A DNA stretch of 64,000 bases, from positions 231,012,001 to 231,076,000 of the forward strand of contig OZ024742.1 in assembly GCA_964016885.1 (NCBI GenBank), given 5' to 3'. The position numbers and the translations under genes were made by a program. Positions 9,633-61,741 of this stretch are shown here, piece after piece. The stretch is from Eledone cirrhosa (Eukaryota). Each line of letters starts with the position of its first letter. Within the stretch, counting starts at the first letter, position 1. The notes under the pieces were generated by a model. The model worked only from the letters and a program-made list of their open reading frames with translations, was not told where the DNA came from and made no database searches.

Positions 9633-10165
9633 AGTGAAGACTAAAATTACCAACTCTAATCGTACGAGCGTAAATCCAGGATGCAGTTGCAGGAAGCCGA
9701 AAAAATGCCCATTACAGGGTAAATGTAATACCAAATCCATTGTGTATGAGGCTAAATTGATACCTAAATTGATACTAAATTGATACGCACCAGCCAGCCA
9801 GGAGTGAACGATATGTTGGCATGACTCAGGACAGATTCAAAACCAGGTATTATGCACATGTCGCTTCTTTCAAACACCTTGAAAAAAGAACAGCAATGGT
9901 GCTGGCAAATAAAGTGTGGGAGTTCAAAGACAAAAACATTCCGTACACTATTGATTGGTCTATTTTAGACCATTCAAGAGAATACCAAATGGGCACAAAC
10001 AAATGTTCTTTGTGCACCACGGAAAAATTTAGAATTCTCCAAAACTTGAAAGCCCCTTCCACTTGCCTCAACTCTAAGACCGAGATCTTTAGATGTTGTC
10101 CGCATCTGAAATCGCATCTACTTTTTAACTGGATTAACATTCCTACGATTACTCAACCACCTTGA
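9633..10165 (+). pseudogene. PLE GIY-YIG endonuclease (frameshifted)
   Basis: GCSCRKPKKCPLQGKCNTKSIVYEAK, then a triplicated CTAAATTGATA and frameshift, then YVGMTQDRFKTRYYAH...KCSLCTTEK...LNSKTEIFRCCPH. IVY/YVG motif with catalytic R, E, N and a Cys cluster. Confidence 0.85.
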
Positions 10166-13039: not shown

Positions 13040-13231
13040 ATAGGAACAAGTAAGACCCCGGCGGCTGAGCTCAGGCCGTTTCGACGGCTAATTCTGGACT
13101 GAATTAGCCGTCGAAACGGCTTGAGCTCAGCCGTCGGGGTCTTACTTGTTCCTATTACCCACTCTACTACCGTAAGTATTGAGTACTTTGGTGCGTTATG
13201 GTCCACCTAGTTCCTTACCACATTTCCTTCG

Positions 13232-17693: not shown

Positions 17694-17893
17694 AACCAGT
17701 AAGACCCCGACGGCTGAGCTCAAGCCGTTGCGACGGCTAGTTCTGGACTGAATTAGTCCAGAATTAGCCGTCGAAACGGCTTGAGCTCAGCCGTCGGGGT
17801 CTTACTGGTTCCTATTACCCACTCTACTACCCCAAGTATTGAGTACTTTGGTGTGTTATGGTCCACCTGGTTCCTTACCACATTTCCCTCGTT
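17690..17893 (+). mobile_element. Palindromic PLE-end element
   Basis: Hairpin 17690-17814 with loop GAATT (17750-17754); same family as 13040. Confidence 0.8.
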
Positions 17894-29187: not shown

Positions 29188-29247
29188 TTTCATTCTGAGG
29201 ATTGAAAGCAAAACCTTTTTCTTTTAAGAAACCACTGGTAAATGGAA
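29188..29247 (+). ncRNA. Type-I hammerhead (paralog of 11764)
   Basis: TTTCATT-CTGAGGA-TTGAAAG/CTTTTAA-GAAA-CCACTGG-TA-AATGGAA. The element ends at the same TTACTTCA (29347) as the 11894 end. Confidence 0.88.
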
Positions 29248-37520: not shown

Positions 37521-37600
<80 letters not shown>

Positions 37601-37639
37601 GATATTAACAAATGGAAACTATATTTATAAAACCATATT

Positions 37640-37704
37640 TATTTCATTATACATATTTCAAGGATACCAAGTTAAATTATGGTATGCCTTCATCAGACAA
37701 AATA
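37640..37704 (-). ncRNA. Type-I hammerhead (left arm)
   Basis: Reverse complement of 37838-37902. Confidence 0.85.
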
Positions 37705-37837
37705 CAATATATACCAGTTTTATAAATAAACATTGACGTACCTTTTCAAAATGCAACCGTTACTTTTGGAAGACAAAAGTAACGGTTGCATTTTGAAAGG
37801 GTACGTCAATGTTTATTTATAAAACTGGTATATATTG

Positions 37838-37902
37838 TATTTTGTCTGATGAAGGCATACCATAATTTAACTTGGTATCCTTGAAATATGTATAATGAAA
37901 TA
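37838..37902 (+). ncRNA. Type-I hammerhead
   Basis: TATTTTGT-CTGATGA-AGG.ATACCA/TGGTAT.CCT-T-GAAA-TATGTA-TA-ATGAAATA. Confidence 0.85.
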
Positions 37903-37941
37903 AATATGGTTTTATAAATATAGTTTCCATTTGTTAATATC

Positions 37942-45696: not shown

Positions 45697-46610
45697 CTAG
45701 CAGTAAAGCCCGGCGTTGCTCGGGGTCGCTCAGTAGCTGTGTTAAAGTTACAATGTTAAGTTTCTTTCTTGGCTTAAAAACTGTAGTGTCTACTGTGCAG
45801 ACTTGCATGTGGTGTTTTTGATTAATATTCCCTCAACCAACAATATGCCTTATGAAGTTAAGAAAACATAACGATAACCCGAATGTTATAACAAAAGAGG
45901 TTGCTGGGGATAGAAACTGCACTGGTTATTTATTAACAAAGATCGAAAATGTAAACACTGCAACGCAGAGAAAAACATTAGCGTAACCAAATTATCAGTT
46001 ATGTCTGTCTGCACGCCTATATCACCTCTCTGCACGACTATCTGTCTGCACGCCTATATCATCTCTCTGCACGACTGTCTGTCTGCACGCCTATATCACC
46101 TCTCTGCACAACTGTCTGTCTGCACGCCTATATCACCTCTCTGCACGAATATCTGTCTGCACGCGTATATCACCTCTCTGCACGACTGTCTGTCTGCACG
46201 CCTAACGACGAAATATTTGCTTGTTTTATGTAGTCTTTAAATAGACTTGTTTTCAAGTAAAAATATTGTTTTAAAATGCTTTTAAATGGAAATGAAGCAA
46301 AACGGAAGCTTCGTGTATTGTGTTAATGTCATTTTAAACGCTGAGAAAGCCAGCATAATTTTTTACGTAAGACGCTCAATGTAAACAGAACAAAGGGAAA
46401 TAACTGATAACTTACGCTCAAAAATCGATACATTATATTCGATTTCGTCACATAGGGCGGGTCAATTTGAAATTTTTTTTTTCCGATGTCTTCGCTAGGG
46501 CTCAATGTACAAGTATAGCAATTTCGGTGCAATTCCGTGAGAGATTCTAAGAGGAGATGTGTGCCAAAAATCGATAGACAGACAGACAACCACAGTTTTA
46601 TATATATAGA
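45697..46610 (-). mobile_element. Non-autonomous Helitron
   Basis: Minus strand starts A|TC and ends with hairpin CCCGAGCAACGCCGGG followed by CTAG|T. Another 3' end at about 32148-32177 (+). Confidence 0.8.
46004..46204. repeat. 37-bp minisatellite, ~5.4 copies
   Basis: Unit TCTGTCTGCACGCCTATATCACCTCTCTGCACGACTR. Confidence 0.95.
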
Positions 46611-47980: not shown

Positions 47981-48021
<41 letters not shown>

Positions 48022-48024
<3 letters not shown>

Positions 48025-48199
48025 GTAAAATTCCGTTATAACGAATACCATTATAACGAACGCCATTATAACGAATTTTTCAGTATAACGAAATTTTTTT
48101 CACACGCTAGATGTGTTAGATCGATCTCGTTATAAAAATGTTTTCCTTACAACGAATTTTTTTATACCACGTGAATTTCATTATAACGAATTGTCATTG
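48022..48199. mobile_element. pogo/Tigger-like MITE
   Basis: TA-flanked CAGGTAAAATTCCGTTATAACGAA end with repeated TTATAACGAA. A relative lies at about 49331-49450. Confidence 0.6.
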
Positions 48200-48359
48200 T
48201 ATGTATGCATATACAAATGTATATATATATATATATATATATACAACGAAATTCCGTTATAATGAAATTCATGGCTATGAAAAAAATTATTTGTAATGAA
48301 AACTAATAACATTATGTACTATTGGACTGCTGCGTTTGTTTATTTGTCCTTTTGAACTA

Positions 48360-48397
<38 letters not shown>

Positions 48398-48478
48398 CGA
48401 AGGAAGTGTGGTAAGGAACCAGATGAACCACAACGCATCAGAGTACTCAATGCTTAGGATAGTAGGAAAATGTTCAAG

Positions 48479-48572
48479 ACCCCGACGGCAGAGCTCAAGC
48501 CGTTTCGACGGCTATTTCTGGACTAAATTAGAATGTTTACCGTGGTAATAAATAGCCGACACTTTCAGGGGT
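48479..48572 (-). ncRNA. Decayed hammerhead, non-palindromic parent of the 13040/17690 family
   Basis: ACCC-CTGAAAGT-GTCGGCTATTT...AAATAGCCGTC-GAAA-CGGC-TTGAGCTCT-GCCG-TC-GGGGT. Confidence 0.7.
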
Positions 48573-49029
48573 AATTCCTCTTATGGGAAGATTGTAGTTG
48601 CCAAAAGGGTTGGTCAAAATTTCTTGTAAACACAATTAAATCTTTCATGGCGGTGGGTGGGAGGTGAGGGTGGCTGAACTTGCCTATAGAACAATGAGCG
48701 AGTGGGTGGAGCCGGTCAAGCGTTGAAAGTGAATTCTATACAGCAAAACTAAGGAGTGTGTAAGAAATTAGGCTAGTTATAAAGCAGGCGAAAAAAGAGT
48801 TCTGGAGTAATCTGGGAGTGGGAAGTTATAAAATTAAATGGTTAATAAATTGAGATTAAAAAATTAAAAAATAATAGATAAAAAAATAATAATATTAAAA
48901 AATTAAATAATAAAAAAAATAAAGAATAATAAAAAGAACTAGAGTCTAAAGCAGCTGCTATATTTTTAGCTGGTATTGCGTTTTTGGCCAGTGCTATATA
49001 AAATTTACTATAAGAATCAACCATTCATG

Positions 49030-49125
49030 ATTTTCAGCAGACAGGTGGAGTACTTAGCTTTGATAAGTACCAAATAGTACGAAACAGAGCTCTGTCAGCT
49101 TTATCTCCCCCTGTTTGCTGAAAAT
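49030..49125 (+). ncRNA. Type-I hammerhead, U3-A8 variant with extended stem I
   Basis: AGCT-TTGATAA-GTAC-CAAATA-GTAC-GAAA-CAGAGCTCTG-TC-AGCT, closed by ATTTTCAGCAGACAGG/CCTGTTTGCTGAAAAT. Confidence 0.88.
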
Positions 49126-49270
49126 TTAAAGTAAGTTAGCCTGTCACTACTCTAAAACAATAGCGTAAGGTCTTCAAAATGCTTTTAATTAAGCATACAG
49201 TGTATTGCAAAATACACTATATATACATTTATATATATATCGCTATTTCAGAGCACCAATTCTAATTTTA

Positions 49271-49333
<63 letters not shown>

Positions 49334-49451
49334 TGAAATACCGTTGTAATGAAAACATTTTGTAACGCCATCGACCTAACACATAGAGCGTGTGGCTGGA
49401 GATTGAAAACATTTTCGTTATAATGGTGTTTGTTATAACGGAATTTTACAC

Positions 49452-49568
<117 letters not shown>

Positions 49569-50267: not shown

Positions 50268-50319
50268 AACGAGTAGGACCCCGACGGCTGAGCTCAAGCC
50301 GTTTCGACGGCTAATTCTG

Positions 50320-50372
<53 letters not shown>

Positions 50373-56106: not shown

Positions 56107-56711
56107 ATTGGCAGTATCGGTAGAGGGTCGGACGCCATGCTTTCCAGCATAGTTACGTCCCTTTACGATCTGAGTTCAAATCCCGCCGAGGTTGACTTTG
56201 CGTTTCATCCTTACGGGGTCGATAAAATAAAGTACCAGTAATGCACTGGGTATTTGCTGGCCTTGTGCCTAACGTAGAAACAATTATTATTTAACGCTTA
56301 GGGTGGTGGATTGGCAGTATCGGTAGAGGGTCGGACGCCATGCTTTCCAGCATAGTTACGTCCCTTTACGGTCTGAGTTCAAATCCCGCCGAGGTTGACT
56401 TTGCGTTTCATCCTTACGGGGTTGATAAAATAAAGTACCAGTAATGCACTGGGTAATTGCTGGCCTTGTGCCTAAAGTAGAAACAATTATTATTTAACGC
56501 CTATTATTTATTAGTGGTGGATTGGAAGTATCGGTAGAGTATCAGACACCATGCTTTGTAGCATAGAGTTATGGCCCTTTACTTCTGTGTACAAATCCCG
56601 CCGGGGTTCGCTTTGCCTTTCATCCTTACGAGGTCGATAAAATAAAGTACCAGTAATACACTGGGATAATTGCTAGCTCAGTGCCAAGAGTAGAAACAAT
56701 TATTATTTAAC
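56107..56711 (+). mobile_element. Three tandem Nin-domain SINEs
   Basis: Starts at about 56107, 56302 and 56514; each ends AACAATTATTATTTAAC. Confidence 0.92.
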
Positions 56712-59304: not shown

Positions 59305-61253
59305 TGTTTCTTTTATTTGCCACCAGGGCATCAAAAGCGGGACAAGTACAATGGGGGGAGTTTACAAAACAAGGCGTCCTCAATAAGGAGGTGGCAATAA
59401 CAATATATAAAAATAAAATAAAATATAACAAAAAATAAAATTTATAACAAAGTCCTCAATAGAGAGGAGGCGCCTTGGGGGGTCGCACACACCCCCGAAA
59501 AAAAGTGTGCAACCCTTTTCCTCTGGAGCACAGAGAAGGGGTGCTCCCTTGGTCTTTCATCTTCCTCACCTATAGTCTGATGTAGAGTGAAGGCCCATTC
59601 ACACGGGCCATTCTCGCCACTTTCACCCATCTTTCATAAAAACGGCTGGGGTGCAGCACCTCTCTCTCCATCCTGATCCTTCTTCCGAAATGATATCGGA
59701 AGAAACGGACCAGTTGTTGGCCAGAGAGAAAGGTGTCTGACCTCAGTCCTTTCAGACGCGTCCACCATACAACCTCTTTCGCCATGGCTATTACGCACAG
59801 AAACACCGCCTCTTCTTCGTTTTTGAAGAGGGGAGGCGGCTTGATCGTTACAATAGACTCGGTGGTCAACCGGATCGGTCCCACCCTTGACAGCAGTTGT
59901 TCGACATAGCCCCACAGATCGGCAATGCCCGAGCACTGTACCAATGCGTGTGCAACGGTTTCCTCGTCGCACACACATCTGGGACAGATCTTTTTCGAGG
60001 GGTCCCTACCCGGGCGCCCGTGTCTGTAGAGCCTTTCTCGAACGGGCAGAGCCCTTCTGTAACATTGCCAGGCCAGGGGCCTCTGGAAGTTATCCATGGG
60101 TCCCGGGCTGAATGTCCTACCGAACAGGTTTGCCAGTTCGTCTTCCTCCATGCCTAGGGCTTCTCCGAGGGCGTCGTCGCACCTGCTAACCACCAGCCCT
60201 CTATAGAATGACGAGGTGGATTCTCCACTGACAGCCGGGTCCGCCTGCCAGAGAGCCGTGAGCGCCTGGGCACACTCGGTGTGCCAGGCGCCCAGTTTTC
60301 TCGGTCTTTGCTTGACCCAGGATTGCAGCTCGGTGAGTGAGACGAGTCTGGGAAAGGCTCGCCTCACAAACGGGGCCCACACCGGTTGACCGGAGAGGAA
60401 TACCTGAAGGTGCCGTAGCCTTAATGCGTGTTTACGTATCATTAGCCACGGCATCCCCAGCCCTCCTTTCGAAGGGTGTTGACAGCAGATGGATCTTCTC
60501 ACCATAGGAGCCCGCTTCTTCCAAAGGAATTGGAAGAGTGCGCGCTCCATTTTGGCGAGCGCTTCCCTTGGGCAAGGCACGACGGTCAGGCGGTAGTAGA
60601 TGACAGACGCTATATAAGTGTTCGCCACCTCCGCCCGACCTTTCAGGGACAGTTTGCACTCGGCCCACTTCTGGGTCAGTGCAAACACCCTGTTCGTTAC
60701 CTCACCCCAGTTCTTCTCCACCTGGAGGTCTGGTCCGAACCAGACCCCGAGCAACTTCACCGGGCCCTCCGTCCAGCGCCCGACGACGCCATCGGAGGGC
60801 ATCGATCTGCCCCTCCACGTGCCGAGTTGCAGACCGATCGACTTGTCCCGGTTCAGCTTAGCCCCTGTAAACCTTTCGTACTCCTCCAGTAAGGTGCCGA
60901 TCGCCCCGATTTCCGAGGCCGTCGACACCATTACTGTTACGTCATCGGCGTAGGCTGACACCACTTTCCGCAATCCCGGTTCCAACGGGATGCCCTGCAA
61001 CAACTCCAACTTCCGCAGCAGTGGCTCTTGAGTCATTACATGCAGAAGGGAGGAGAGAGGGCACCCCTGTCGGATGGACCGCGCGATTTCGAACGGCTCC
61101 GAGACGTAGCCGTTCACCTTGACCCTAGAGCAGATGCGGCTGCTGTGCATGGCATTGATCCAGCCCCTGAAAACGGGTCCGAAGCCTGCCGCCGCTAGCA
61201 CCGCATCCAGGTAACCATGGTCGACCCTATCGAATGCCTTAGATTGATCCAAA
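59305..61253 (-). mobile_element. 5'-truncated Tx1/L1-clade non-LTR retrotransposon
   Basis: GC-rich block; 3' UTR ends AATAAAAGAAACA into (TATC)n; AGATAG at the 5' junction. Confidence 0.9.
59570..61252 (-). CDS. ORF2 fragment: reverse transcriptase plus C-terminal CCHC zinc finger (no native start)
   Basis: LDQSKAFDRV, IRQGCPLS, AYADDV, KLLGVWF, LSLKGR and CPRC...ETVAHALVQC; about 560 codons without a stop. Confidence 0.92.
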   Translation of the reverse strand: MDQSKAFDRVDHGYLDAVLAAAGFGPVFRGWINAMHSSRICSRVKVNGYVSEPFEIARSIRQGCPLSSLLHVMTQEPLLRKLELLQGIPLEPGLRKVVSAYADDVTVMVSTASEIGAIGTLLEEYERFTGAKLNRDKSIGLQLGTWRGRSMPSDGVVGRWTEGPVKLLGVWFGPDLQVEKNWGEVTNRVFALTQKWAECKLSLKGRAEVANTYIASVIYYRLTVVPCPREALAKMERALFQFLWKKRAPMVRRSICCQHPSKGGLGMPWLMIRKHALRLRHLQVFLSGQPVWAPFVRRAFPRLVSLTELQSWVKQRPRKLGAWHTECAQALTALWQADPAVSGESTSSFYRGLVVSRCDDALGEALGMEEDELANLFGRTFSPGPMDNFQRPLAWQCYRRALPVRERLYRHGRPGRDPSKKICPRCVCDEETVAHALVQCSGIADLWGYVEQLLSRVGPIRLTTESIVTIKPPPLFKNEEEAVFLCVIAMAKEVVWWTRLKGLRSDTFLSGQQLVRFFRYHFGRRIRMEREVLHPSRFYERWVKVARMARVNGPSLYIRL

Positions 61254-61272
61254 TAGATAGATACATACATAC

Positions 61273-61741
61273 ATGGTGGCTGCCAACTCGTTTTCGAGTA
61301 CGGCCACTACTTTATATCCATGTAGGAGAACCCCTACCGATGCACTGAACGAGTGTGACTTTTTAGTCCAGCCAGCGACTTGAAAACTCTGGTACAAACA
61401 CTACACTTGTGACAATTATTGACACATAGTGCTGGGCCCATGGTACCATGTGACGACAAGTGCAGAGAGATCTCCAGATATAAAGCAATGCCTGTGCCGT
61501 GGAGCTTTTATAGTGAGCAAAGGCACTGCACAAAGCCAGTCCCACTCTCTTAACCAAGATGATATTTACCAAAAAGAATAACAAATCAACATCATTGGAT
61601 ACCATCAGGGTTGCAGGTGTTATATTAGAGTTTTCCTTCTCCTAGAATTCTGCCTTGACAAAGACTAAGGGGTCATCTCTCCCGGTGATTTTGGATGGCC
61701 ATTGACTCTTAAGAGCTCCTTTGCCCTTTGACAGGTTTTGA
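61273..61741 (-). mobile_element. Non-autonomous RTE-like element, 5'-truncated
   Basis: Near-identical to 61787-62250; (CATA)n on both sides. Confidence 0.75.

Follow-up and report, generated by a model that had tools for sequence, protein, structure and literature searches.

Metazoan non-LTR retrozymes, as described from coral, mussel and axolotl (Cervera and de la Pena 2020, PMC7229834; Li, Clavereau and Pollet 2026, 10.64898/2026.07.22.740005), are non-coding units in the range of 170-400 nt with a GC content below 50%, which carry one canonical type I hammerhead per unit and occur as tandem and dispersed copies in genomes that also possess Penelope-like elements (PLEs). Mobilisation by PLEs has been proposed for them (PMC7229834; 10.64898/2026.07.22.740005), as has ligation of their circles by RtcB (PMC7229834). 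According to PMC7229834, most metazoan circles, with the exception of some from mussel, are predicted to leave the hammerhead free, so that the block to their cleavage must differ from self-pairing. Dimer cleavage via a palindromic loop III is also on record: in the double hammerheads of the newt/axolotl satellite, ASBVd and the PLE pLTRs (PMC6155905, PMC6765202, PMC3088659, PMC4209133) a palindromic helix and loop III pair between tandem copies, and the dimer is needed because helix III is too short. In the hammerhead core, C3-G8 is a confirmed pair (PMC3884650), and natural U3-A8 versions have already been described (Perreault 2011, PMC3088659; PMC4209133), including about 1,300 minimal motifs in the Cercyon-related PLEs of Schistosoma mansoni (PMC4209133). 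EN+ Penelope-like elements of the Hydra clade, of which a CxCX5C linker is a motif (Craig et al. 2021, 10.1101/2021.04.23.441226), show 5' truncation, partial tandems, an inverted 5'-truncated arm, a tail at one end and (TA)n targets.

The window analysed here, a stretch of 64,000 nucleotides from Eledone cirrhosa, is animal DNA rich in (TA)n. On its plus strand, at 49030-49125, lies a motif in which stem I, the core, stem II, GAA, helix III, C17 and the 3' strand of stem I follow one another in the 5' to 3' direction. We conclude that this hammerhead is real, that the retrozyme family carrying it is new, and that its core variant was already known. The parts of the locus are as follows:

48363-48396, no strand: (TA)n target, left side.
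48397-49009, minus: 3' non-coding end of a Penelope-like element of the RT + GIY-YIG type (Hydra-like CxCX5C linker).
49008-49275, plus: copy of the 321-nt unit with a truncated 5' end, covering unit positions of about 233-321 and then 1-179.
49030-49045, plus: 5' strand of distal stem I, 16 bp with 49110-49125, one of them G-U.
49047-49055, plus: 4 bp (49047-49050 with 49105-49108), then the internal loop of stem I on its 5' side, a candidate for a tertiary contact with loop II.
49056-49059, plus: 5' strand of proximal stem I, AGCT, paired with AGCT 49097-49100 in the active fold and with 49088-49091 in the predicted off fold.
49060-49066, plus: catalytic core TTGATAA (U3-U4-G5-A6-U7-A8-A9), with U3 at 49060 and A8 at 49065; in the predicted off fold U3-G5 are sequestered by 49085-49087.
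49067-49080, plus: stem II (4 bp, GTAC 49067-49070 with GTAC 49077-49080, pair probability above 0.98) and loop II, CAAATA.
49081-49083, plus: core G12-A13-A14 (GAA); GAA..TC is found in 211 of 240 copies.
49084-49095, plus: helix III, ACAGAGCTCTGT, a 12-nt palindrome that makes a 4-bp hairpin alone and a 12-bp duplex between two copies.
49096-49097, plus: C17 (49096) and the scissile bond GUC|A, as predicted from the sequence.
49097-49125, plus: 3' strands of stem I, the internal loop and the distal stem.
49218-49240, plus: TA-like patch whose end, unit position 144, is the first fixed 3' end; putative priming site on nicked (TA)n.
49241-49269, plus: tail of 25-29 nt, ending at unit position 169-173, the second fixed 3' end, as in PLE insertions.
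49269-49330, no strand: (TA)n target, right side.

Stem I (AGCT/AGCT), the core TTGATAA, stem II (GTAC/GTAC), ACAGAGCTCTGT, the GUC site with its cut after 49096 and the 16-bp distal stem all lie where the first-pass annotation had put them; the extra 4 bp of 49047-49050 with 49105-49108 sit between the distal stem and the internal loop. The elements Y3-U-G-A-N-R8-A, GAAA and NUH and the paired positions 3 and 8 are all present, and the three helices with an open end at helix I, backed by covariation, are those of a type I architecture. A strict descriptor finds one motif in the 64-kb window and none in 300 Markov-simulated, composition-matched windows, with both strands counted, and the motif region folds with a z of -7.34. 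A search of the motif against Rfam gave no match at the gathering score; the match with the best E among 11 was Hammerhead_HH9 (20.2 bits, E 0.02, gathering score 52). Judged by its core, stems and cut site, the motif is a real hammerhead, and self-cleavage is predicted for it. A tertiary contact between loop I and loop II is plausible; the first base of loop II is C in 226 and its last base A in 234 of 240 copies, and the loop aligns to the Hammerhead_HH9 model.

Other features of the window include a fold-back pair of another hammerhead family at 37600-37930, with CTGATGA cores at 37846 (plus) and 37696 (minus). Its helix II is long, its helix III is short and palindromic, and its stem I has 8 bp; the pair ends at (TA)n and looks like inverted PLE ends. 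A relaxed scan gave further loose hammerhead-like cores at 29195 (plus, with 7-bp stems I and II), 36371 (minus), 2928 (plus) and 46809 (minus). The window also contains a 578-aa open frame for a LINE-type reverse transcriptase in a GC-rich stretch (59570-61306, minus) and tandem repeats of 203 bp (56107-56711) and 37 bp (46002-46204).

What the first-pass annotation overlooked is that the motif belongs to a mobile unit of 321 nt, and that a single copy of it is predicted to be locked. The length of the unit is taken from direct tandem pairs, its GC content is 0.35, its longest ATG-initiated ORF has 28 aa, and position 1 is defined as the first base 3' of the predicted cut; the copy in the window is shorter than one unit. 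With its single type I hammerhead the unit falls in the 150-450 bp range of non-LTR retrozymes, and it resembles the metazoan ones in its non-coding nature, length, low GC content, single canonical hammerhead, tandem and dispersed copies and the presence of PLEs in the same genome. It differs from them, as far as they have been described in the sources cited, in being mostly U3-A8, with a C3-G8 sister subfamily. An ORF check found no RT + GIY-YIG ORF in the unit, which is thus not an autonomous PLE, and a search of the unit for Pol III A and B box motifs found none.

A DNA search of the 3.0-Gb genome yielded 2,725 candidates, of which 40 were scored. In exact-pattern searches of the genome, a first pattern matched 362 times, a word near the 3' end 3,808 times, the core of U3-A8 type together with stem II 1,799 times and helix III 1,440 times, as against 0 for the reversed-pattern controls; the motif is one of thousands of copies and not a singular locus. 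The 268 segments that we mapped are spread over 139 distinct regions, in which no LTR architecture was seen. Tandem arrays extend to 18 units, a second array has 15, and the hammerhead recurs in consecutive units (26 tandem pairs). The 18-unit array (G000:C1:82390200-82395900; L143, L135, L144) contains diverged units and several damaged cores, in the 15-unit array (L154) two steps of 320 nt and one of 515 nt make up a higher-order period, and at L114:508-1110 a 165-nt sub-unit (positions 57-221) without the hammerhead is repeated in tandem. One degenerate hammerhead pattern had 0 matches in metagenome and viral contigs, and the contigs from three sequencing runs that carry the family (one study, kind unrecorded) behave like genomic repeat collections; no run listed with the family was an RNA run. 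The literature searched, mostly open-access, contained no description of the 321-nt family or of such a lock; the supplement of PMC7229834 may list this family or a similar one.

The insertions of the family carry all the marks of the PLE type, namely fixed 3' ends, a tail on one arm, an inverted 5'-truncated arm and a microsatellite target, and they share with the Hydra-clade elements the 5' truncation, partial tandems, inverted arm, one-ended tail and (TA)n targets (10.1101/2021.04.23.441226). The 3' ends fall at unit position 144 or 169-173, and TA comes next in 179 of 205 such ends (two arrays excluded); 20 of 25 letters of the internal TA-like patch fit (TA)n. Inverted arm pairs (n=92) combine one end of each type in 60 cases, like ends in 2 and another end in 30. 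In 59 regions picked only by the 3' word, with one array excluded, an inverted arm is present in 36, arms longer than one unit number 31 of 87, and of 66 arms extending as far as the cut site 62 continue past it. Only 4 of 66 arms have their 5' end within 3 nt of the cut, where there is no pile-up; exact starts at the cut site occur in 5 arms from 4 regions (L021, L046, L065 twice, L112), and other positions peak similarly. The read-through of the cut site fits uncleaved tandem transcripts as well as circles. At L065:1480-1779 and L112:920-1230 both arms start at the cut or at most 2 nt away and fold back at the palindromic AGCT, and they look like the product of cDNA synthesis that ran off the end of a cleaved RNA. 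On these sequence grounds we assign the 321-nt family to the metazoan non-LTR retrozymes with PLE insertion marks, for which RNA circles are presumed.

In the window the PLE piece and the retrozyme copy are joined 5'-to-5' at 49008-49009 with no TA run between them, and (TA)n bounds the pair. An older inverted-repeat element (48017-48243 and 49275-49457, 66% alike) surrounds them, whose inner (TA)n took the PLE-retrozyme pair. The Pfam GIY-YIG match for the neighbouring PLE family (E 0.0078) is below the cut-off, and DKT is present in nearby fragments that may belong to another family. An ORF fragment resembling a PLE GIY-YIG endonuclease is located at 9779-10165 (plus), with no Pfam match at E 0.1. 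The hairpin-forming terminal word of the Hydra-like PLE family is repeated at 13077-13118, 17726-17778, 48500-48530 and 50300-50327, partly in fold-backs, and is very abundant in the contigs of the three sequencing runs.

Fusions of the 5'-to-5' kind with Hydra-like PLEs make up 3 of the 56 non-self 5' junctions (the window; L016, which equals L184; and L039). As three other 5' junctions have PLE pieces in the same orientation (L055, L103) or behind a TA run (L121), the fusions are only suggestive of a partnership, and nested insertion into shared targets may be the source of such neighbours. A clean chimeric two-armed insertion was seen at L184:78-2215 (G000:C3:328052600-328056500), in which the retrozyme arm stands 5'-to-5' with about 1.7 kb of a second Hydra-like PLE and (TA)n lies at both outer ends. 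Apart from the TA patch, the 321-nt unit has no sequence in common with the 15 PLE loci compared, and none of the 56 non-self 5' junctions joins a retrozyme copy in register to an ORF. Unlike the EN+ elements of the Hydra clade (10.1101/2021.04.23.441226), the unit lacks an ORF, and its tail measures 25-29 nt as against the 30-40 nt described for them.

The evidence for selection on the RNA comes from covariation. Positions 3 and 8 are U-A in 206, C-G in 23 and otherwise in 11 of 240 ribozyme copies, a set biased by the choice of loci, and U-A in 80, C-G in 3 and otherwise in 7 of the 90 copies picked by the 3' word. These counts, together with the natural occurrence of the pair elsewhere (PMC3088659, PMC4209133), bear out the earlier suggestion that U3-A8 is a tolerated compensatory variant, and the family has the same core covariation as those published hammerheads. 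Unlike them, to the extent that these sources describe them, it combines U3-A8 with a full-size ribozyme that has a stem I loop and loop II, and it holds both 3-8 states in one family with a common non-ribozyme body. The C3-G8 sister subfamily has at least 227 matches and the rest of its unit in common with the U3-A8 copies; from these sequences, we take the two states to be a natural compensatory swap within one family. C3-G8 in the stem II background of U3-A8 has 0 exact matches versus 1,799 for U3-A8, for which a single evolutionary event could be an alternative cause. In the listed part of a tree of the non-ribozyme flanks (188 of 240 copies), the C3-G8 copies cluster among U3-A8 copies with a 6-bp stem I; the tree is unrooted and poorly resolved, and therefore gives no direction for the swap.

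In 18 chosen copies, changes on both sides affect 2 of 6 pairs of stem I, 3 of 4 of stem II, 1 of 4 of stem III and 6 of 20 of the distal stem, in addition to the 3-8 pair, these being few events counted many times. The covariation score of the same copies was reached by 0 of 500 shuffles, by a statistic that ignores kinship. Stem II exists as GTAC/GTAC, GCAC/GTGC, GCAT/ATGC and ATAC/GTAT, and is fully paired in 97 of 100 matches listed for three versions (hand count), while stem I is AGCT, GGCT or AGTT/AACT. The palindromy of every helix in the first-pass description is thus in part accidental: it applies to helix III, which is self-complementary across subfamilies with its loop included, and not to helices I and II, which lose their palindromes in the sister subfamilies while keeping their pairs and so are conserved as pairs. 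By hand count, 87 of 100 matches listed for helix III are perfect palindromes (of three kinds) and 99 are self-complementary with G-U, under a pattern that fixed the inner GC and allowed transitions only; the outer loop pair in 100 matches listed is A-T in 67, G-C in 24, G-T in 8 and A-C in 1 (also by hand). Since a hairpin cannot pair its loop bases, their covariation points to pairing between copies. The exception is the C3-G8 subfamily, where loop III reads AGAT in 99 of 100 matches listed.

Folding of 49030-49125 gives as its energy minimum not the hammerhead but a structure in which 49056-49062 (the 5' strand of stem I with U3, U4 and G5) pair with 49085-49091. In this monomer the active fold lies 2.9 kcal/mol above the off fold, under a folding model that ignores tertiary contacts and Mg2+. 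The off-fold probability is 0.988-1.0 at 15-37 C in three contexts, with that of stem I at most 0.01, and in two other subfamily copies the gap is 7.0 and 5.1 kcal/mol. With 17 gapped copies skipped, the off fold is the minimum in 86 and the active fold in 7 of the palindromic U3-A8 copies (n=112); among non-palindromic U3-A8 copies the off fold is the minimum in 52 of 83, and among C3-G8 copies it prevails in 9 and the active fold in 14 of 23. The off fold is also present in two natural units folded as circles, and circular folding of the unit is stable (z -4.4). For the 7 pairs of the off helix, pairing is preserved in 94% of cells, and there are two changes on both sides; this helix partly follows from the palindrome itself and may be its by-product. 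Two molecules fold exactly into a double hammerhead, with -92.5 vs -81.8 kcal/mol (2 x -40.9). Among the 26 natural tandem pairs, helix III forms between the units in 21, and both stems I have at least 3 bp in only 7.

Taken together, we think it probable, though well short of certain, that this type I hammerhead belongs to a non-LTR retrozyme, a mobile, non-coding repeat of 321 nt present in thousands of copies, and that a lone copy, predicted to hold itself shut, likely cuts only once two neighbouring copies build a double hammerhead. In a single copy or circle, the palindrome of helix III would pair through its 5' half with the 5' strand of stem I and U3-U4-G5; in a tandem transcript, two palindromes would form the 12-bp helix and thereby free stem I. 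Tandem transcripts would then be cut after C17 into 321-nt monomers, which might be ligated into locked circles. A PLE protein would nick (TA)n, the nicked strand would prime on the internal TA-like patch, and reverse transcription would proceed around the circle from either side of the break. Such a dimer resembles the known double hammerheads in the palindromic pairing of helix and loop III between tandem copies. Unlike those, going by the sources cited for them, it has a helix III of 4 bp, and a competing helix, which takes in core nucleotides, is predicted to keep its monomer closed. From the metazoan circles of PMC7229834, as that source presents them, the family, known here from its DNA, differs in the predicted short lock inside the ribozyme.

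Alternatively, the same retrozyme could have an ordinary type I hammerhead active as a monomer, in which the 4-bp helix III and a contact between loops I and II prevail over the alternative fold, with no more than a helping role for the palindrome. We consider this unlikely. A 4-bp helix with a tetraloop does exceed the 1-2 bp of the dimer-dependent newt/axolotl motifs (PMC7229834, PMC4209133), the gap of the window copy is just 2.9 kcal/mol, the ends of loop II are conserved, and the C3-G8 subfamily favours the active fold. However, loop III covaries as a palindrome, for which a monomer would have no need, the gap is wider in the two other subfamily copies, and, from the order of the sequence, the off helix can form co-transcriptionally before the 3' strand of stem I exists.

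It is more improbable still that we are dealing with a SINE-like passenger or an orphan terminal repeat of a PLE, copied from uncut tandem transcripts and spread without cutting or circles. The arms that cross the cut site, together with 5' ends that are not clearly enriched there, agree with such a passenger, as do the poor cleavage in vitro of PLE hammerheads (PMC4209133) and the proposed origin of retrozymes from PLE pLTRs (10.64898/2026.07.22.740005). On the other hand, compensatory changes have preserved the core and every helix across the subfamilies, a pattern that requires selection on the RNA fold; among the 56 junctions no copy is linked in register to an ORF, and the unit folds stably as a circle. 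Finally, we give hardly any credence to the idea that the palindromes arose by fold-back and template switching at the DNA or cDNA level, with the hammerhead likeness a dead relic or chance: fold-back junctions are indeed many, the Rfam score is far below gathering and template switching can perfect quasi-palindromes, but it cannot account for the 3-8 swap, for swaps in stem I and the distal stem over 40-90 nt or for an invariant single-stranded core, and the simulated windows contain no such motif.

Returning to the retrozyme shut as a single copy, it is tempting to go one step further and to consider it a natural allosteric hammerhead, in which the helix III palindrome would be both the lock (in the monomer or circle) and the key (with the next copy, as a double hammerhead), and the 3-8 pair would co-evolve with the lock. 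U3 would turn a C-G pair of the off helix into U-G, so that the dimer could open it, and the C3-G8 subfamily would have broken the lock by a change of loop III from AGCT to AGAT. In folding predictions, C at position 3 stabilises the off fold by 2.6-2.7 kcal/mol. We put this reading forward tentatively, as a possibility that we ourselves rather doubt. With the monomer predicted to be 99% off and C3 expected to lock it harder, neither a failure of the monomer to cleave nor a failure of the double mutant to rescue it would refute the ribozyme; the assay of U3C and A8G mutants in the monomer, suggested in the first-pass annotation, would thus be a weak one, and monomer assays can wrongly reject a genomic hammerhead.

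U3-A8, the palindromic loop III and the link with PLEs have each been published before, which limits the surprise; what sets the family apart, and lends itself to a test, is the lock-and-dimer switch predicted for it, with natural subfamilies, locked and unlocked, as controls. By the anatomy of its insertions, this family further extends the genomic case for the copying of retrozymes by PLE enzymes. A lock would give a reason for U3-A8 instead of C3-G8 in a hammerhead, and the lock-and-key reading, if true, would mean that locked and unlocked alleles of one retrozyme exist in nature. How animal retrozyme circles avoid re-cutting is left open in PMC7229834; the predicted self-locking of the single copy would explain how a probable small RNA circle avoids cutting itself, and the 321-nt family thus offers a concrete candidate answer.
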